The notes under the pieces: model-generated
Database searches by the model: none
What the model saw: the letters and a program-made list of their open reading frames with translations, nothing else
Told to the model about the DNA's origin: nothing
Part shown: positions 4,702 to 12,323 of the stretch, piece by piece
Layout: every line of letters starts with the position of its first letter
Position numbering within the stretch: the stretch's first letter is position 1
Made by a program: the position numbers and the translations under genes
DNA from: Formosa sp. Hel1_33_131
GTDB lineage: Bacteria; Bacteroidota; Bacteroidia; Flavobacteriales; Flavobacteriaceae
NCBI RefSeq assembly: GCF_001735745.1
Contig: NZ_CP017260.1
Span: forward strand, 660,001 to 692,000
Reading direction: 5' to 3'
Length of the DNA stretch: 32,000 nt

Positions 4702-4724
4702 TTCAACGACATTATATCTAAAAA

Positions 4725-5240
4725 CTAAGCTTTATCACTATCAAAATTATGATTGGCAAAATTATGGCATTCTACAATATCATTTATCTTTTCAAGTCCG
4801 TTCGGACCTAGCCATCTTGTATTGAATGACTTCAGCACTTTTTGTTGCCCATTCTCATCAACAACACTTAGTATAATAGATTTTTTTAAAGAAAAAAAAC
4901 TTAGTTGTTTTTTTTTCTTTAGTTTATGATTACTATATACTTTTAAAATTTTTATGTTTTGTTTTCTAAAAACTACATTTTTTTTAAAATTTGGAAAAAA
5001 TGTTTCAATAACAAGCCCATTTTTATCATTTGATATTCTTAAGAAAAAGGGGGACTCAAAAACTTCAAAAAAAAGCGTAAACAAAATCAAAAAAATAGAT
5101 AAATTTTGTAATACTTTAAAACCATAATTCAACTCTATAACAAGTCTAAAAATAGAAGTAACAATTAGTACTATCAATGAAATAAAAATAACGTATTTCC
5201 TTAGACTAAGATACTTTACAAAAATATTTCTGTTTGTCAT
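4725..5240 (-). CDS. Uncharacterised membrane protein (two N-terminal TM helices plus a Lys-rich soluble domain). Last gene of the peptide-toxin operon
   Basis: 171 aa. Hydrophobic segments are YVIFISLIVLIVTSIFRLVI and LSIFLILFTLFFEVF. It lies 25 nt downstream of the PCAT gene on the same strand. The coding sequence is very AT-rich with many homopolymer runs. Confidence 0.5.
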   Translation of the reverse strand: MTNRNIFVKYLSLRKYVIFISLIVLIVTSIFRLVIELNYGFKVLQNLSIFLILFTLFFEVFESPFFLRISNDKNGLVIETFFPNFKKNVVFRKQNIKILKVYSNHKLKKKKQLSFFSLKKSIILSVVDENGQQKVLKSFNTRWLGPNGLEKINDIVECHNFANHNFDSDKA

Positions 5241-5265
5241 TCGATTTAATGATTTGGGGTGGCTG

Positions 5266-7440
5266 TTAAACCAATATTTCTTTCCAAAATAAACTGTAAA
5301 AATTATTGGTTTTCATTAATTCATCATGCGTTCCAAAGTTAGATATAATTCCGTTTTCCAAAACATAAATTCGGTTAGCAATTTTCGGTAATGAATGCAA
5401 TCTATGAGATATGAAAATAATAGTCAATTCAGATTTTAGTTTATTTAATAAATCTAAAACAAACTTCTCTGTTTTTCTGTCCATTGCCGAGGTAAACTCA
5501 TCCAATAATAAAACCTTTGGTTTTTTGTATAAAGCACGCATTAAAGCAATCAATTGTTTTTGTCCACCAGAAAGATTAATGCCTTCTTCACCCAAAATGG
5601 TGGCATAACTTTGCGGTAAAGTGTTTATAAAAATTTCAAAACCGTAATCTTGACAAAATTTTACAATATTTTCAGGTGTATCTTCTTTGCCTAAAAGAAT
5701 ATTGGTAATAACATTACCGCCAAATATAGTGACGTCTTGAGGTACAACACCCAAAATAGTACGCCAACTTTTTGTGTCTATATCAAAAAAATTAATTTTA
5801 TTGTTGATGATTATTGCTCCGTTTTCAAAAGCATAGAATTTTTGTAAGACTTGACCTAACGTGCTTTTACCGCTACCACTTTCGCCAACTATGGCAATAC
5901 ACTCGTTTTTATTTACTCTGATGTTTATGTCTTTCAATAATTGACTTCTACCAGCAAATCGGAAAGACAAGTTTTTAATTTCAAGCGAATTGAAGTCTGA
6001 AATTTCCATATTCCCTTTTTGCTCTTTTTCCATAGAAGCAAACTCATACATTCTGTTAAAGGCCACTTTTGCTTCATTGATTGGAATGGTTATTAAAGCC
6101 AAACTAGCCACAGATGGCAATAAACTACCTGCAACGCCTAAAACTGCCATTAATTCTCCCAATTGCATAACTTCATTATAGACTTGAATAGAAGTGTAAC
6201 CCAAAATACTCATTAAGAAAAGCACACTAAATACACCTGAAAAAACAGATAAACGTACATTTATTTTACCGAGGTTAAAGGATTTCTCTTGAAAACTCCC
6301 ATAGATGAGTTGGTTTATCTTTTGAAAGATTGTTTGCCTATTATTATTTTTTACGGCGGCTATACCTTGCATTGATGTAATATAATTGCTCTCACTAAAA
6401 GCGTAGCCTTGCATCACTTCTTTTTGAGCAGTTATGATGCGTTTGTTAAAACTATAAATGAGGATAAAATAAAAAGGTAAACTAATAGAAGCGATTAAGC
6501 CTGTTTGCCAAGAATAGTAAAATAGAAAACCTAATGAAACAATAGTAACTAACGCATTAATAACCACATTACCCACAATCTGACTAATAACACGCTGCAC
6601 ACGTTGCGTATCGTTCAAACGGGCAACGAGCTCACCAATTTTACGCGTATCAAAAAAGGGCTTTGGTAAATTTAACAGCGAAGAATAAAAACGATCTACA
6701 ATACGGTTGTTAAAATCTTTGGTTTGGCGAATGAGAAAATAATCTCGTAAAGCAGTAAACAAAACTCTAATCAATAACAAAAAGGCAACGAGAGCAATGC
6801 CTGTAATAAGTTTTGTGAAATCTTTTGAGGGTAAAATATCATCAATTAATTTTTGCGAAAATATAGCCATTGCCATACCCAAAATAGCAATAGCTAAACC
6901 CAACAACACACTAAAAGAGATTAAACGATAATCTTCCTTGAGCAATTTTAAAAACCATTTTTTTTTGTTTTTGCTTTGGGTTTCGGTTTTTATAAAATTT
7001 TTGTTTGGCGTAAGTGTAAGGCAGGTTTTTGATTTCCAAATGCTTTCTAATTCCTCTTTGGTGTAAGTCGTGATTCCTTTTGCTGGGTCACCAATGATAA
7101 ATTTGTCATTTATATATCCATAACAAACCACATAATGCTGTAAACGTTCTTCAATGACCACATGTAAAATTAATGGCTCTTTGTGGTCTATGATAGCTTG
7201 TAAGTCCGCTTCGTTTCCTTTCGCTGAAAACCCTATTTGATTAGCTGCTTGAAACAATCCTAAAAGCGTAGTCCCTTGTTTTGTTGTTCCACTTAATTCA
7301 CGAAGTTTCTCTAAATGGTTTGAGCCTCCATAATATTGAATTAATGATAGCAAACAAGCAACTCCACAATCGGACTGGTCGTGTTGTAATGTAAAAGTCT
7401 GTTGTAATTCTTTTTGAGAGAGTTTGATAGTTTTACTCAT
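5266..7440 (-). CDS. Peptidase-C39-domain ABC transporter (PCAT), a double-glycine leader processing and export ATPase
   Basis: 724 aa. The N-terminal C39 domain has a catalytic Cys (QSDCGVACL), His (LQHYVVCYG) and DPAKG. A six-helix ABC membrane domain follows. The NBD carries Walker A GESGSGKST, Q-loop VPQD, signature LSGGQKQ, Walker B VLLLDEFTSAMD and H-loop ISHRL. Confidence 0.9.
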   Translation of the reverse strand: MSKTIKLSQKELQQTFTLQHDQSDCGVACLLSLIQYYGGSNHLEKLRELSGTTKQGTTLLGLFQAANQIGFSAKGNEADLQAIIDHKEPLILHVVIEERLQHYVVCYGYINDKFIIGDPAKGITTYTKEELESIWKSKTCLTLTPNKNFIKTETQSKNKKKWFLKLLKEDYRLISFSVLLGLAIAILGMAMAIFSQKLIDDILPSKDFTKLITGIALVAFLLLIRVLFTALRDYFLIRQTKDFNNRIVDRFYSSLLNLPKPFFDTRKIGELVARLNDTQRVQRVISQIVGNVVINALVTIVSLGFLFYYSWQTGLIASISLPFYFILIYSFNKRIITAQKEVMQGYAFSESNYITSMQGIAAVKNNNRQTIFQKINQLIYGSFQEKSFNLGKINVRLSVFSGVFSVLFLMSILGYTSIQVYNEVMQLGELMAVLGVAGSLLPSVASLALITIPINEAKVAFNRMYEFASMEKEQKGNMEISDFNSLEIKNLSFRFAGRSQLLKDINIRVNKNECIAIVGESGSGKSTLGQVLQKFYAFENGAIIINNKINFFDIDTKSWRTILGVVPQDVTIFGGNVITNILLGKEDTPENIVKFCQDYGFEIFINTLPQSYATILGEEGINLSGGQKQLIALMRALYKKPKVLLLDEFTSAMDRKTEKFVLDLLNKLKSELTIIFISHRLHSLPKIANRIYVLENGIISNFGTHDELMKTNNFYSLFWKEILV

Positions 7441-7960
7441 TTTGTTGTAAAGCTCTTAAAACACCTTTGACATTGAGTTGACCTTTATGTTTTTTTATGA
7501 GCTCTTGGTTTTTATCGTAGATTAATACATAAGGAATAGATGTAGCATCAAATTGACTAGAAAAAAGGCTATTGTTATCATATAAAAATGTGATGTTTTG
7601 TTGATTGTAAAAATTGTATTGTTTTGAAAAATTTTGAATGACTTCAATCGATTCTGTAGATACAAAAACGAATTGTACATTTTTAAAGCTATCTAAATTA
7701 TCGCTAATGTTTTGCGCCTCATAGTGGCAAAAATCGCAGTCACTATTAAAGTAAATAAAAATAGCATTTAAGTTTGGTTTTAGGTCCGCTTTTGTAAACG
7801 GTTGTTGCTCTAGGGTAAAGAATTCAAACTCCGGTATGGTTTGAAGTTGTTCCGCTATTGCCTTTTTTTCTTTAGCTTTAATTATGATGTTATAACCTAG
7901 GTAGGATAACAAACCTAAAACACCAATTACAACTATAAAGAAGATTAATTTTTTAAACAT
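7433..7960 (-). CDS. Membrane-anchored thioredoxin-fold (TlpA/redoxin-like) thiol:disulfide oxidoreductase
   Basis: 175 aa. It has an N-terminal TM anchor (LIFFIVVIGVLGLLSYLGY), a CxxC motif (NSDCDFCHYE) and redoxin-like downstream blocks (VQFVFVS, IPYVLIYD). Its stop overlaps the PCAT start by 8 nt (AAATGAGTAA). Confidence 0.7.
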   Translation of the reverse strand: MFKKLIFFIVVIGVLGLLSYLGYNIIIKAKEKKAIAEQLQTIPEFEFFTLEQQPFTKADLKPNLNAIFIYFNSDCDFCHYEAQNISDNLDSFKNVQFVFVSTESIEVIQNFSKQYNFYNQQNITFLYDNNSLFSSQFDATSIPYVLIYDKNQELIKKHKGQLNVKGVLRALQQNE

Positions 7961-7962
7961 AA

Positions 7963-8631
7963 TTAACTCATATTAAGTGTGAAGAACATTACTCCAACGA
8001 CCCAAATAAGTAGAGCAACCCCATAACTACTTGCAACAATAGAAAAACCTTTAGAGGTAGTGGTTTTAAGTTCTTTACTAATTAGGGAAGCTAAAATAAA
8101 CCAATAAGCGAATTCAAATAGATTGATGACTTGAAACGGATAGATGAACCACGTTTGTAATCCCTCATAGCCTACAATATTAAGTGCCGATAATGGATAG
8201 AAATATTGTAAGTTTTCTAAAGTATAGTCTTGTTGGAAAACATAAAACCATATTGTTTTTAAAATCATTACCCCTAAAAAAACAAAATCGGCCTTTGTTA
8301 CTATATTAAAAAGTTTTTTATACTTAATTTCTTTATCAAAAAAGAAACAACCTACATCTAATATTAAGGCAATGATAGAAATTTTAATTATAAGTAATAG
8401 AGGCAATAACAAATAAGCAATCCATTCCCATTTTTGTTGAAAATTTAGTGCTTTTTCTATTTGTTTTGTAGTAAGCTGCTCAGCTAAAGAATTAATTACT
8501 AATTCCTCTGTGTTAAGTAACTCTTTAGAAATAAACCCTAAAAAAAAACTAAAAGCAGTAAGAAAAAATAGTTTTTCATTTACAAAGTGAAAATATAAAA
8601 GGGTAAATATATTGTTGATACATTTACCCAT
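7963..8631 (-). CDS. Multipass integral membrane protein of unknown function (candidate immunity or accessory protein)
   Basis: 222 aa with an ATG start and about 5 hydrophobic helices. It has only 2 Cys and no CxxC, so it is not VKOR-like. The EExxxR and His motifs of CPBP/Abi proteases are absent. A 2 nt gap separates it from the thioredoxin-fold gene. Confidence 0.6.
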   Translation of the reverse strand: MGKCINNIFTLLYFHFVNEKLFFLTAFSFFLGFISKELLNTEELVINSLAEQLTTKQIEKALNFQQKWEWIAYLLLPLLLIIKISIIALILDVGCFFFDKEIKYKKLFNIVTKADFVFLGVMILKTIWFYVFQQDYTLENLQYFYPLSALNIVGYEGLQTWFIYPFQVINLFEFAYWFILASLISKELKTTTSKGFSIVASSYGVALLIWVVGVMFFTLNMS

Positions 8632-8646
8632 ATTAATAACTAAAGT

Positions 8647-8814
8647 TTATTTAGTCTTATTTTTATTAATAAAAAATAAATTAACTAAAGAAATAACTAA
8701 TGCTAATATTGACCATATATTATCAATAATTTTTTCTTCATTGATTATCAAATACACAAATATTAATATTATAATAATACAGTTGAGAAAAATCAGTTTT
8801 TTTATATTAGTCAT
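8647..8814 (-). CDS. Small two-TM-helix protein, 55 aa, not in the supplied ORF track. Candidate bacteriocin immunity protein
   Basis: Hand translation of the minus strand: MTNIKKLIFLNCIIIILIFVYLIINEEKIIDNIWSILALVISLVNLFFINKNKTK*. The ATG lies 11 nt after the precursor stop, and the ORF's stop lies 15 nt before the next gene's ATG, so it fills the gap exactly. Both ends are Lys-rich and there are two hydrophobic helices. Confidence 0.5.
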   Translation of the reverse strand: MTNIKKLIFLNCIIIILIFVYLIINEEKIIDNIWSILALVISLVNLFFINKNKTK

Positions 8815-8825
8815 AATACAAAGTA

Positions 8826-9011
8826 TTAGTTAGCAATACAACCATCCACAACTCCAACTGATGCAACTGCAACAGAAGCAATAAAAGCCCAACCAATGGG
8901 ACCAGCTAGTGCGCCTATTATTATAGTAGCAGCATAAGATCCAACTGCTATACCACAAGAAACATCACCACCTTGTAAATTTTCCATTTGATTTAATTTT
9001 AATGTTTTCAT
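8826..9011 (-). CDS. Double-glycine-leader bacteriocin precursor peptide (class II-like, unmodified apart from a probable disulfide)
   Basis: 61 aa. The leader MKTLKLNQMENLQGG has hydrophobic residues at -4, -7, -12 and -15. The core is DVSCGIAVGSYAATIIIGALAGPIGWAFIASVAVASVGVVDGCIAN, 46 aa, with Cys4 and Cys43 and several GxxxG motifs. It is the first gene of an operon that contains a C39 PCAT. Confidence 0.8.
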   Translation of the reverse strand: MKTLKLNQMENLQGGDVSCGIAVGSYAATIIIGALAGPIGWAFIASVAVASVGVVDGCIAN

Positions 9012-9079
9012 AATATATAAATTAAGTTATAAAATGTTGCCTTCATGATTTGGGGCAACTATCCAACTATTAGACGTAC

Positions 9080-9110
9080 CAAATCTATAAACTAAAATTT
9101 AAAAAACAAA
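9080..9110 (-). promoter_or_regulatory. Candidate Bacteroidota sigma-A-type promoter for the peptide-toxin operon
   Basis: On the minus strand, TTTG (9110-9107) is followed by 19 nt and then TAGATTTG (9087-9080), which fits -33 TTTG / -7 TAnnTTTG. It sits about 70 nt upstream of the precursor ATG. Confidence 0.35.
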
Positions 9111-9481
9111 AAATTAACACATAAAAACCTGTATATCAATATATTGTGAATTTATTTTTATTAATTTGGTTCAATTATTGTGAAAATTGTTTAAACAAAA
9201 TAAATAGTGTGTATTTTATATTTTTTACCCAGCTAGTCAATTGAATATTAGTGTGAAAAATAAATTTAAAATAGTAACTATTTTTGGATTTTTTGTTTAA
9301 TAATTGTAGGAACTGTTTATTCAAAAAAATAGTTGTTTTAAGAAGATATAAGCTGTTATCCTAGTAACTAACACTGTTTAAAACAGGCAAAGGACAGAAG
9401 AATTGTAAAATTTATATATTATAGTTGGTTTGAAAGAAGTAAAACCAAGCAGTATTAAAACTTAACGTTTTTAAAATTATA

Positions 9482-10456
9482 CTAATTTTCTGGAAACCCA
9501 TTAAACACCTCTGTTTCGAGTTGATTATCTTCGGTAACAAAAGCAATAAAGACTTTTAATTCCGTGTGCATCTTAAGAAATACGCTGATTTCTTCTACTT
9601 CCATGGCTTGAATTGCAGTAGCATAGGCATCTGCAATCATACAAGATTGAGCAATGACCGATACGGTCAATATATTAGAACGGATTGGATAGCCTGTTTG
9701 GGTATCAATTATATGTGTATAGCGATTGCCTTCTGCATCAAATTTAATTTTACGATAAGTTCCAGAGGTTGCCATGGATTCATTTTCGAGGGCTAAAGTC
9801 GTTATATAGCGTTTATCGCTCTCTAGATTGGGGTGTTGAACGCCAACTTTCCATTGTGTATTCTTAACGGAGTTAATGCCTTTGGTACGAATTTCACCCC
9901 CTATTTCAATTAAATAATTTTGAATGTTTTTAGCTTCTAAATAGCGTCCGATTACATCGACGCCGTATCCTTTGGCAATGGCATTAAAATCTAATCGAGT
10001 TGCTTTTGGTTTCGAAATAACGCCCTTACTAAGCGTAACTTTATCCATTCCTACAGACAGCATGAGTTCGTGGATTTTAAGACTGTCTAAGGCTTCTATT
10101 TTTCCTTCAGGTCCAAAATCCCATGCATTGACTACAGCGCCAATCGTAGGATCAAATTTGCCTCGTGTCGCGGTGTGAATTTCTTTTGATGTATTGAAAA
10201 CTTTCTCAAAATGATGGTCGATAACCACCGGGTCATTTGCATTTACTTTTGAAATATCAGAACTAGAAATGTATGTAGACATAGAACGATTAACTTCAAA
10301 AAACAGACTGTCAAATGCAGTTTCATGATTTTCGCTACTCTCATAAAGAATTGAGTAGGTCGTTCCAAAAACAGAACCAGCCGCCCGTAATTGTTCTGAT
10401 TGATTCGAACAAGATACAAGTGCTAAAAAAATAAATAATAAATAATTTTTAATCAT
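9482..10456 (-). CDS. apbE: FAD:protein FMN transferase (ApbE family) lipoprotein
   Basis: 324 aa. Lipoprotein signal with lipobox LVSC. ApbE-type blocks include FDPTIGAVVNAW, NAIAKGYGVD and MATSGTYRK. It lies downstream of the nqr operon, whose NqrB and NqrC subunits it would flavinylate. Confidence 0.9.
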   Translation of the reverse strand: MIKNYLLFIFLALVSCSNQSEQLRAAGSVFGTTYSILYESSENHETAFDSLFFEVNRSMSTYISSSDISKVNANDPVVIDHHFEKVFNTSKEIHTATRGKFDPTIGAVVNAWDFGPEGKIEALDSLKIHELMLSVGMDKVTLSKGVISKPKATRLDFNAIAKGYGVDVIGRYLEAKNIQNYLIEIGGEIRTKGINSVKNTQWKVGVQHPNLESDKRYITTLALENESMATSGTYRKIKFDAEGNRYTHIIDTQTGYPIRSNILTVSVIAQSCMIADAYATAIQAMEVEEISVFLKMHTELKVFIAFVTEDNQLETEVFNGFPEN

Positions 10457-11012: not shown

Positions 11013-12323
11013 TTACCCTCCAAAGTCATCAAATCGAATGTGCTCATCTGCAATTCCAAAATCTTCACCCATTTTCTGAACCGCTTGGTTCATTAATGGT
11101 GGGCCACAGAAATAGAGTTCGATATCTTCTGGAGATTCGTGATGATTTAAATAATTATCGATCACACAGTTGTGGATAAATCCAACAAAACCATCGCCTT
11201 CGGCATCAATATTTTCTTTTACTTTCCAGTTGTCTTCTTCCATTGGTTCAGAGAGTGCTAAATGGAATTTGAAGTTAGGAAAATCTCTTTCTAAGGCTTC
11301 AAAATGTTCTAAGTAAAACAACTCACGCTTAGAACGTCCTCCGTACCAGTAAGATACTTTACGACCTGTTTTAAGGGTTCTGAATAGATGGTATAAATGC
11401 GAACGCATGGGCGCCATTCCAGCTCCTCCACCAACATATAACATTTCTGACTCACTCTCATTGATAAAGAACTCTCCATAAGGTCCGGAAATGGTTACTT
11501 TATCACCTGGTTTTTGAGCAAAGATATACGAAGATGCAATCCCTGGATTTACGTCCATCCAACCGTTCTTAGCACGGTCCCATGGTGGCGTAGCAATACG
11601 CACATTTAACATGATTTCGCGACCTTCTGCAGGATAGGATGCCATTGAATAAGCACGTTCTACAGTTTCATTGTTTTTCATGGTAAGTGGCCAGAGACCA
11701 AACTTATCCCATTCCGCTTGAAACTTATCTGGAGTTTCGTGTTCTTCTGGATGCGCTGTGATGTCGATATCCTTAAAATTGATTTCACATTCTGGAATCT
11801 CAATCTGGATATATCCACCTGCTTTATACCCCATATCTTCTGGGATTTCCACTACGAATTCTTTAATAAAAGAGGCGACGTTGTAGTTACGCACAACGGT
11901 TGCTTCCCATTTTTTAATTCCAAAGACTTCTTCTGGAATGGTGATTTCCATGTCTTGTTTTACCTTTACTTGACAGGATAAACGGGCACCATGTTTCAAC
12001 TCTTTTCTTGAGAAGTGAGGTGTTTCTGTTGGCAAGGCTTCACCTCCACCAGACAGCACGTGACACTCGCATTGAATACACGTTCCACCACCACCACAAG
12101 CAGATGGTAAAAATATTTTATTCCCACTTAAAGTGGATAACAAAGTAGCGCCTGAGGCTACTTCAATTTCGCGTTCACCATTGATCAGAATCTTTACAGG
12201 TCCTGAGGGTGATAGTTTTTGTTTTACAAAAAGGAGCACACTAATTAATAGTAACGAAGTCACTAAAAATGCTACGACGGTAGCTAAAATGGTTCCGGTT
12301 GTTCCAGCGGCTAAAATCATCAT
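11013..12323 (-). CDS. nqrF: Na+-translocating NADH:quinone oxidoreductase subunit F
   Basis: 436 aa. It has an N-terminal TM helix, a 2Fe-2S ferredoxin motif (CGGGGTCIQCEC) and an FAD/NADH-binding domain (RAYSMAS, GGGAGMAP). Confidence 0.95.
   Translation of the reverse strand: MMILAAGTTGTILATVVAFLVTSLLLISVLLFVKQKLSPSGPVKILINGEREIEVASGATLLSTLSGNKIFLPSACGGGGTCIQCECHVLSGGGEALPTETPHFSRKELKHGARLSCQVKVKQDMEITIPEEVFGIKKWEATVVRNYNVASFIKEFVVEIPEDMGYKAGGYIQIEIPECEINFKDIDITAHPEEHETPDKFQAEWDKFGLWPLTMKNNETVERAYSMASYPAEGREIMLNVRIATPPWDRAKNGWMDVNPGIASSYIFAQKPGDKVTISGPYGEFFINESESEMLYVGGGAGMAPMRSHLYHLFRTLKTGRKVSYWYGGRSKRELFYLEHFEALERDFPNFKFHLALSEPMEEDNWKVKENIDAEGDGFVGFIHNCVIDNYLNHHESPEDIELYFCGPPLMNQAVQKMGEDFGIADEHIRFDDFGG

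Follow-up and report, generated by a model that had tools for sequence, protein, structure and literature searches.

A chromosomal island of probable bacteroidetocin type, with an exchangeable precursor cassette, in Formosa sp. Hel1_33_131

The window analyzed here is a stretch of 32,000 nt from the North Sea isolate Formosa sp. Hel1_33_131, and its subject is an AT-rich island of six genes, all on the minus strand, between a methyltransferase gene and apbE (coordinates are window positions throughout). The island encodes a precursor peptide with a double-glycine (GG) leader, a peptidase-containing ATP-binding cassette (ABC) transporter (PCAT), a thiol oxidoreductase and three further membrane proteins. 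It is a locus of a known kind, that of the bacteroidetocins, differing from the loci of bacteroidetocins A and B (Bd-A and Bd-B) in the chemistry of its cargo, in its immunity-like genes and in its cassette organization. What is new, as read from the sequences, is a hydrophobic, anionic core, in contrast to cationic Bd-A and Bd-B, and the cassette itself, of which three versions are exchanged among relatives at one junction. A literature search found no paper connecting Hel1_33_131 with "bacteriocin".

Results

Gene content and boundaries of the island

The open reading frames (ORFs) and other features of the island are given below in coordinate order (aa, amino acids; TM, transmembrane; UTR, untranslated region).

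4702..9481, minus strand: AT-rich inserted island, from the methyltransferase stop to the apbE stop, bounds set by DNA alignment
4725..5240, minus strand: protein of 171 aa, with two TM helices at its N-terminus and a C-terminal domain rich in beta structure; probably a gene for orphan immunity
5266..7440, minus strand: PCAT, 724 aa, with C39 residues Cys25, His102 and Asp118
7433..7960, minus strand: thiol oxidoreductase, 175 aa, thioredoxin fold (AhpC-TSA, E 6e-12)
7963..8631, minus strand: multipass membrane protein, 222-aa ORF, homologue of the bacteroidetocin "5-TM" protein; canonical ATG at 8579-8577
8448..8964, minus strand: variable cassette, made up of the core-coding part of the precursor gene, the 55-aa gene and some 60 codons at the start of the multipass-protein gene
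8540..8548, minus strand: T9 homopolymer at the 5' end of the multipass-protein gene, its length setting the reading frame
8591..8629, minus strand: terminator-like hairpin, 12-bp stem and 5-nt loop, followed by a U-rich tail, UUUUAUAUUUU
8647..8814, minus strand: 55-aa protein with two hydrophobic segments (7-25 and 32-50); candidate cognate immunity protein
8826..9011, minus strand: precursor, 61 aa; leader MKTLKLNQMENLQGG at 9011-8967, 46-aa core (DVSC to GCIAN) at 8966-8829
9036..9059, minus strand: 5'-UTR hairpin GTTGCC-N12-GGCAAC, then ATTTTAT; the Formosa-type islands conserve it, L102 having a G-U substitution
9080..9087, minus strand: candidate Bacteroidota -7 box TAGATTTG (TAnnTTTG), 76 nt upstream of the precursor ATG

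The six minus-strand ORFs lie where the original prediction had placed them, with gaps of 11, 15 and 2 nt, an 8-nt overlap and a gap of 25 nt. Its "six-gene operon" holds in so far as six co-directional ORFs are present, but the sixth gene, encoding the 171-aa protein, is not a core member and is absent from a sister haplotype. The AT-richness that it had noted from spot counts is real: the counts are exact (6 of 60 G+C at 8641-8700 and 30 of 60 at 11401-11460), and the GC profile gives 29.0% for the island (4702-9481) against 37.5% for the remainder of the window. In 178 windows of the same length outside the island the mean is 37.5% (standard deviation 1.0%), none falling below 34.8%. The ORF list and domain searches also confirm that integrase, transposase, regulator and modification enzyme are lacking inside the island, and no radical-SAM gene appears there in the ORF list or by Pfam. 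Examination of the island ends revealed no target-site duplication, att site or integrase.

For comparison, one genome per species was scanned with the flanking methyltransferase as query, and the island and flank proteins were mapped onto 86 loci (comparison loci are designated by L numbers). In the closest species-representative genome, an uncultured Formosa metagenome-assembled genome (L007), the site is empty: the methyltransferase stop lies 8 bp from the apbE stop, while the methyltransferase and NqrF are 95% and 100% identical to the window proteins. Among the other 79 Flavobacteriaceae loci, the gap between methyltransferase and apbE is below 40 bp in about one quarter and below 500 bp in about one half. 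No close relative of the island PCAT occurs in those loci, the only PCAT matches (22-28% identity) sitting several kb off, beyond the opposite side of the methyltransferase. The island is a horizontally inserted gene cluster, and the accessory nature foreseen for it is borne out at the junction, which is empty in L007 and has the two genes adjacent in other genera. The island of L002 includes the final 24-37 nt, approximately, of a window-type apbE, which points to spread by homologous recombination via the flanking core genes.

The apbE gene itself (9482-10456) shares about 52% protein and about 60% DNA identity with that of L002-L007, amid flanking genes that are 93-100% identical, and L101 has a third allele (329 aa, 71% DNA identity). 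It appears that the apbE beside the island was replaced by recombination or is unusually diverse in the population. An additional contig, L001 from the European Nucleotide Archive (ENA), is 99% identical to the window across 19 kb.

Homology to the bacteroidetocin locus

Bacteroidetocins have been described as peptides with a GG leader of 15-16 residues and a core that is about 35-50 residues long and contains two or more Cys, encoded beside a multipass TM protein, a PCAT and usually a thiol oxidoreductase, and proposed as class IIf (Coyne 2019, PMC6671954). Deletions in the same study demonstrated that the peptide, TM and oxidoreductase genes are needed for full toxin activity, which was also abolished by transposon insertions, among them one in the ABC transporter gene. 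The Bd-A locus used for comparison (L088) comes from a gut metagenome; its four genes were read, and the Bd-A sequence was taken from the supplement of Coyne 2019. The scan of gut metagenomes did find Bd-A loci, and a search for Bd-A in plasmids (tblastn) and viral contigs gave no match.

The PCAT contains Peptidase_C39 (E 1.5e-33), ABC_membrane (1.2e-30) and ABC_tran (3.1e-26) domains, all above the Pfam thresholds, and scores 396.8 bits against TIGR01193 over model positions 1-704 of 708, below the subfamily cutoff of 523.85. It aligns over its full length with the Bd-A PCAT (36% identity, 722 residues, E 4e-148), with Cys25, His102 and Asp118 in register. The oxidoreductase, which has a single N-terminal hydrophobic segment (residues 5-23) and a C75-D-F-C78 motif, is 27% identical to the Bd-A enzyme (E 1e-9), both having the motif NSDCDFC. 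The multipass protein, identical to FORMB_06090 of Formosa sp. Hel1_33_131, matches the Bd-A TM protein weakly in a pairwise alignment (E 1e-4, with 26% identity across 146 residues), and hhalign aligns the two over 172 columns (E 5.7e-5). A profile search of 1.84 billion representatives yielded 1157 relatives of this protein at E<=0.001. The family profile, built from 136 representatives and the window protein, gives the Bd-A TM protein a full-length score of 83.3 bits, whereas none of 500 shuffles exceeds 2.1 bits and unrelated membrane proteins score below zero.

The AlphaFold model of the multipass protein has a mean predicted local distance difference test (pLDDT) score of 93.8, with low confidence for residues 1-20 and more than 95 for the remainder; Foldseek found nothing significant for it in the PDB (best E 2.7), and the 222-aa protein matches no curated family in Pfam or NCBIfam. 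Matches to Yip1 (PF04893, E 0.52) and YknW (E 0.01, 15 bits with a cutoff of 110 bits) are below threshold, and Yip1 matches occur in 5 of 53 family members (best E 4.4e-4); any relationship to Yip1 or YknW is at most distant. A DsbB/VKOR-like role for the 5-TM protein was considered and rejected: the family alignment has no invariant Cys, and the sole conserved one, C95 (in A1), is not kept in the Bd-A homologue.

Judged by its sequence, the locus displays all of the locus-level features of bacteroidetocins, namely leader, core size and Cys content, PCAT, 5-TM protein and oxidoreductase. Domains and homology confirm the original prediction of a double-glycine peptide locus that combines a PCAT and a thiol oxidoreductase with small membrane proteins, and the resemblance to bacteroidetocin loci that it had proposed is upheld by the homology of PCAT, oxidoreductase and multipass protein each to its counterpart in L088. 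A host among the Flavobacteriia, which had been presented as something new, is not: the members listed in Supplementary Data 2 of Coyne 2019 (PMC6671954) come from Flavobacterium, Tenacibaculum, Elizabethkingia, Chryseobacterium and a Flavobacteriaceae bacterium, Formosa not being among them.

The three machinery proteins are also found as a set in Mesoflavibacter, where an integrase lies next to them, and in Winogradskyella and Gaetbulibacter, at 86-89% identity to the window for the PCAT, about 70% for the multipass protein and 66-74% for the oxidoreductase. The adjacent housekeeping methyltransferase is only 76-79% identical between these genera (L098, L099 and L100), and the greater conservation of the PCAT suggests recent lateral spread of the machinery genes. 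A more distant set, in the Cytophagia, is found on the Flammeovirga pectinis plasmid NZ_CP034564 (L107, 43934-47455), where genes for a multipass protein, a redoxin and a PCAT accompany a polar 51-aa GG peptide with two Cys at the ends of its core; transposases lie beside this set and a LanC-family gene is near.

Precursor peptide

The precursor leader, MKTLKLNQMENLQGG, comprises 15 residues ending in Gly-Gly and is common to the precursors of Mesoflavibacter, Winogradskyella and Gaetbulibacter; aligned with the Bd-A and Bd-B leaders, it shares invariant M1, K2 and G14-G15. The core, DVSCGIAVGSYAATIIIGALAGPIGWAFIASVAVASVGVVDGCIAN, has 46 residues with Cys4 and Cys43. Its grand average of hydropathy (GRAVY) is +1.51 and its charge at pH 7 is -2.3, with no Lys or Arg and 37% Gly plus Ala. 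The Bd-A and Bd-B cores have GRAVY values of -0.64 and -0.85, charges of +5.8 and +1.7, seven and six Lys plus Arg, 17% Gly plus Ala in each, and four Cys each against two in the window core.

Four close homologues of the precursor are 82-93% identical to it. The cores of the three other genera are hypervariable, yet hydrophobic, non-cationic and rich in Gly and Ala, and a single Cys lies close to either end. In all, 10 flavobacterial relatives have a 15-residue leader of the type MKTLELNQMENxxGG (with one or two substitutions in some) and two core Cys, which enclose a Gly/Ala-rich hydrophobic core in all of them except L101.

The hidden Markov model searches proposed in the original prediction succeeded for the PCAT and oxidoreductase domains and failed for the leader: TIGR04149 (GG-leader, radical-SAM-modified peptides of Bacteroidota) and the leader model TIGR01847 had no match to the window precursor at E<=1, and gave sub-threshold matches only, for one relative and for Bd-A. 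Equally below threshold were PF17508 (class II microcin/microcin V; 14.2 bits, cutoff 27, E 0.067) and TIGR03949 (lactobin A/cerein 7B; 13.8 bits, cutoff 21.5, E 0.037). The precursor thus has no curated Pfam or NCBIfam family match above cutoff, and no sequence match in the PDB.

The exchangeable cassette and the immunity candidates

The DNA homology of the window to L101 and to L102 is lost at about 8441-8447, some 60 codons within the multipass-protein gene, and is regained at 8965-8968, where the leader-coding part ends. These breakpoints define the exchanged unit as the core, whatever gene or genes follow it and the 5' part of the helper gene. The site exists in the following forms, core type I being present in seven loci, type II in five and type III in one.

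Empty form: L007
Type I with 171-aa gene: window and L001; 55-aa gene after the precursor
Type I: L002-L006; 55-aa gene after the precursor; 171-aa gene absent from L002-L005, and L006 ends at the PCAT
Type II: L102-L106; core EPNAWGC...DKYC or VVSWWGC...DKYC; 171-aa homologue after the precursor
Type II, position after the PCAT: L102 has the 171-aa gene there, and the contigs of the remaining loci stop short of it
Type III: L101; core SWWGLVGC...PTPAY; ABC ATPase and 370-aa membrane protein; 171-aa gene after the PCAT present

The 55-aa gene always pairs with the type I core (window and L001-L006), and small two-helix ORFs in the same slot of L098 and L100 are 27-33% identical to its product. 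In L102-L106, the slot of the 55-aa gene, directly after a precursor that differs from that of the window, is taken by a homologue of the 171-aa protein (63-82% identity). Since each core type pairs with its own downstream gene, these downstream genes are read as cognate immunity determinants, and the 55-aa protein becomes a candidate for the cognate immunity protein of the window peptide. Since the 171-aa type pairs elsewhere with another core, the window 171-aa gene is read as an orphan, and it is probably an orphan immunity gene. Its homologues number only 10, and this island type contains every one of them; the islands of L002-L006 that lack it or end before it are otherwise 96-97% identical. 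In L102 there are two copies of the 171-aa type, one per position, 81% identical to each other. Neither the 55-aa nor the 171-aa protein has a match in Pfam, NCBIfam or PADLOC. The AlphaFold model of the latter (pLDDT 72) displays a pair of TM helices, a beta-rich domain and, at the C-terminus, a further helix; Foldseek found nothing significant for it in the PDB (best E 0.08), and its scattered FERM/PTB/PH-like matches are not relied on.

In the locus of Gaetbulibacter jejuensis (L100, 1600-7000), three GG-leader precursors lie upstream of one set of machinery genes, as do four or more partial copies of the helper gene, an array consistent with accumulated or remnant cassettes and with cassette turnover.

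Expression signals

The candidate -7 box follows TAnnTTTG, which we take to be the Bacteroidota -7 promoter consensus. It is conserved as TAGnTTTG in all five Formosa-type islands examined, at 76 nt from the precursor ATG in four and at 80 nt in L106. A sigma-70 promoter scan did no better than shuffled sequence (27 sites, 27.5 expected). The fold of the 5'-UTR hairpin is likewise no better than shuffles (z -0.96). The terminator-like hairpin, which separates the 55-aa gene from the canonical start of the multipass protein and overlaps the ATG of the 222-aa ORF, has a minimum free energy of -13.5 kcal/mol (z -3.8), a value that 0 of 200 shuffled sequences matched. It may be a leaky terminator, in which case partial termination would favour the precursor and immunity transcripts. 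An Rfam scan of the whole window gave no match.

The 470-bp AT-rich region upstream of the precursor contains three TTCACA(A/C)TA-like copies (9142-9259), partly conserved in L002 and L101; L098 and L100 have instead ACCACTTATTACATC-like direct repeats upstream of their precursors. Such repeats could be binding sites for a regulator, though the island has no regulator gene.

Discussion

A proposed mode of action

The block is quite probably a chromosomal, horizontally inserted bacteriocin locus of bacteroidetocin type (proposed class IIf) that operates in the following manner. A promoter about 76 nt upstream would drive the 61-aa precursor and the 55-aa two-helix membrane protein, and the terminator-like hairpin after both small genes would probably reduce read-through into the machinery genes. 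The C39 domain of the PCAT would cut the 15-residue leader after Gly-Gly, and the 46-residue core would be pumped over the inner membrane. In the periplasm, the membrane-anchored CxxC oxidoreductase would link Cys4 to Cys43, thereby clamping the ends of the peptide, which, being Gly/Ala-rich and hydrophobic with a central Gly-Pro, may form a helical hairpin. The multipass protein would serve as an obligatory production helper, like its homologue for bacteroidetocin B. The released peptide would kill related Flavobacteriia, the 55-aa protein providing cognate immunity and the 171-aa gene presumably acting as orphan immunity against a second peptide type from co-occurring strains. Homologous recombination would swap the cassette, anchored in two conserved stretches, the leader-coding sequence and the body of the multipass-protein gene.

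Several observations weigh against this interpretation. The core has no significant similarity to Bd-A or Bd-B, the alignment identity of 17% lying mostly in the leader, in a comparison that covered these two peptides and not the 15 other published bacteroidetocin-like peptides. The Bd-A and Bd-B loci contain no immunity gene and their producers are self-sensitive (PMC6671954), and immunity is therefore no trait of the family. The 55-aa gene, at 14.9% GC, has no detectable family in Pfam or NCBIfam, and no outer-membrane export component is encoded in the locus. To these may be added the reading frame of the helper gene and the published proteomes, both of which are considered below.

Target of the peptide

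The same type of locus might produce a peptide that acts as Bd-A does, by binding an exposed loop of the outer-membrane protein BamA and with no membrane insertion. The accessory machinery is homologous to that of the Bd-A locus, and resistance to Bd-A maps to BamA, the resistant mutants also resisting other bacteroidetocins (PMC8546649). Sensitivity to Bd-A, however, depends on an aspartate of BamA (PMC8546649), a dependence that fits a cationic ligand, and the chemistry of the window core is opposite to that of Bd-A and Bd-B in hydropathy and charge; it lacks Lys and Arg, and it has two Cys where each of those has four. The hydrophobic and anionic nature of the core favours membrane insertion over the BamA binding shown for cationic Bd-A, and the membrane immunity-like gene linked to the cassette better fits a membrane target. 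Action through BamA is accordingly considered unlikely.

Reading frame of the helper gene

The relatives encode a 205-aa multipass protein starting with MKNYFFLLLLVFF (P0006, on 27 contigs), and only a run of ten T residues keeps its canonical frame. The run is T10 in L002, L003, L005 and L006, T11 in L001 and L004, and T9 in the window, where, owing to T9, the canonical ATG (8579-8577) meets a stop after 13 codons. Production may on this account be off or altered in Hel1_33_131. The 222-aa ORF exists because an upstream ATG (8631), inside the hairpin, lies in the shifted frame. Its coordinates had been predicted correctly, but about the first 30 residues are read in a frame other than that of the canonical 205-aa protein, and its N-terminus is to that extent frame-shifted. 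The variation in the T-run reflects either slipped-strand phase variation of a production gene or homopolymer sequencing error.

In the proteomes of Formosa B (Unfried et al. 2018, PMC6246565), the C39 protein FORMB_06070, which we take, by tag order only, to be the island PCAT, has zeros in 9 of 9 columns. FORMB_06060, FORMB_06080, FORMB_06090 and FORMB_06100 were not found in the text files of the supplement, where the adjacent ApbE (FORMB_06110) was detected (PMC6246565). The locus was hence silent or below detection under those conditions. Between FORMB_06090 and FORMB_06110 there is the single locus tag FORMB_06100 for two small genes, and either the precursor or the 55-aa ORF (8647-9011) is therefore probably unannotated publicly. 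A second C39 protein, FORMB_08090, is encoded in the genome outside the window.

The locus might thus be off or decaying in this strain and kept mainly for immunity, Hel1_33_131 being an immune non-producer whose helper protein is disabled by T9. The early stop set against the in-frame T10 of four relatives, the T11 of two others and the absence of any locus protein from the published proteome supplements speak for such a state. On the other side, the upstream in-frame ATG at 8631 restores a 222-aa ORF whose model is very confident from residue 20 or so, the other genes are intact, the catalytic residues of the PCAT included, and differences in homopolymer length may be sequencing errors. Loss of function is on balance quite improbable.

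Several island and flank genes are split in L001 (10365-11586) and L102, two long contigs from one ENA study (the PCAT into three pieces, a Peptidase_M24 gene into two). This is probably long-read indel error, and the split genes were not used as evidence of decay.

Role of the 171-aa protein and of the peptide

Instead of conferring immunity, the 171-aa protein could be an optional accessory factor in export or regulation. Its gene follows that of the PCAT by 25 nt in the same direction, and the protein has neither a family nor a significant structural match. Against such a function, it is dispensable for an otherwise complete locus (L002-L006), its homologue holds the slot after the precursor in five loci and co-varies with the type II core, and in L102 two diverged copies occupy one position each. 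An accessory role therefore appears rather unlikely in comparison with orphan immunity.

PCATs also export GG-leader pheromones in Gram-positive bacteria. A signal or other non-toxic role for the window peptide, with the PCAT exporting for communication, could draw on that precedent and on the fact that toxicity is here inferred, but it is very improbable, as the island and its immediate surroundings have neither a sensor kinase nor a response regulator (ORF list, Pfam), toxin/immunity pairs typically show such a highly hydrophobic 46-residue core, bracketed by a disulfide and accompanied by a membrane protein that varies with it, and homologous loci make proven toxins (PMC6671954).

Relation to known systems

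The island shares with bacteroidetocin loci (Bd-A, Bd-B, Bd-C and Bd-D) the GG leader, a 46-residue core with Cys near its ends, the three homologous accessory proteins, the lack of modification enzymes and horizontal acquisition, in a published family that spans four Bacteroidota classes, Flavobacteriia among them. It differs in the hydrophobic, Gly/Ala-rich, anionic core with two Cys, where those of Bd-A and Bd-B are cationic, aromatic and soluble with four, and in gene order, the peptide coming first here and the TM protein first there. It also contains immunity-like genes after the precursor and after the PCAT, of which the Bd-A and Bd-B loci have none, and it occupies a chromosomal hotspot with no mobile-element genes, at which cassettes are exchanged by recombination.

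Class II microcins such as microcin V (MccV) and the Gly-rich class IIb bacteriocins (lactobin A/cerein 7B) likewise combine a GG leader and a Gly-rich hydrophobic core with PCAT export and an adjacent small membrane immunity gene, and MccV also carries a disulfide. Unlike these systems, the island has no CvaA-type fusion protein, and its oxidoreductase and 5-TM helper are absent from them. Swappable toxin/immunity modules and orphan immunity modules are known from the streptococcal blp loci and from contact-dependent inhibition (CDI)/Rhs systems. As there, a conserved leader-coding 5' part and the machinery flank a variable segment, and immunity-like genes occur without a cognate toxin; the difference is that the segment swapped here also takes the 5' 60 codons or so of the helper gene, and that the immunity roles are putative.

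Conclusions

It is conceivable, though doubtful, that the locus represents a wider pattern. The marine Flavobacteriaceae might then possess a mechanistically separate branch of bacteroidetocins, made up of hydrophobic, anionic, two-Cys helical hairpins, clamped by a disulfide, that attack membranes and, in contrast to Bd-A and Bd-B, are accompanied by their own immunity proteins, while in bloom-associated Formosa populations swappable cassettes, orphan immunity and a poly-T phase switch might drive interference competition at the level of strains.

The locus connects the export and oxidation machinery of bacteroidetocins with a chemically opposite cargo. Its natural putative toxin/immunity pairs are usable to probe the role of the 5-TM helper, the N-terminus of which co-varies with the cargo cassette. 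At one chromosomal site the alleles range from an empty junction to three different toxin/immunity cassettes, and an immunity-like gene occurs there as an orphan. The clade of Hel1_33_131 recurs in North Sea spring blooms and has been studied almost solely for its use of polysaccharides; a toxin locus that varies among strains could help explain strain turnover and coexistence in bloom populations.

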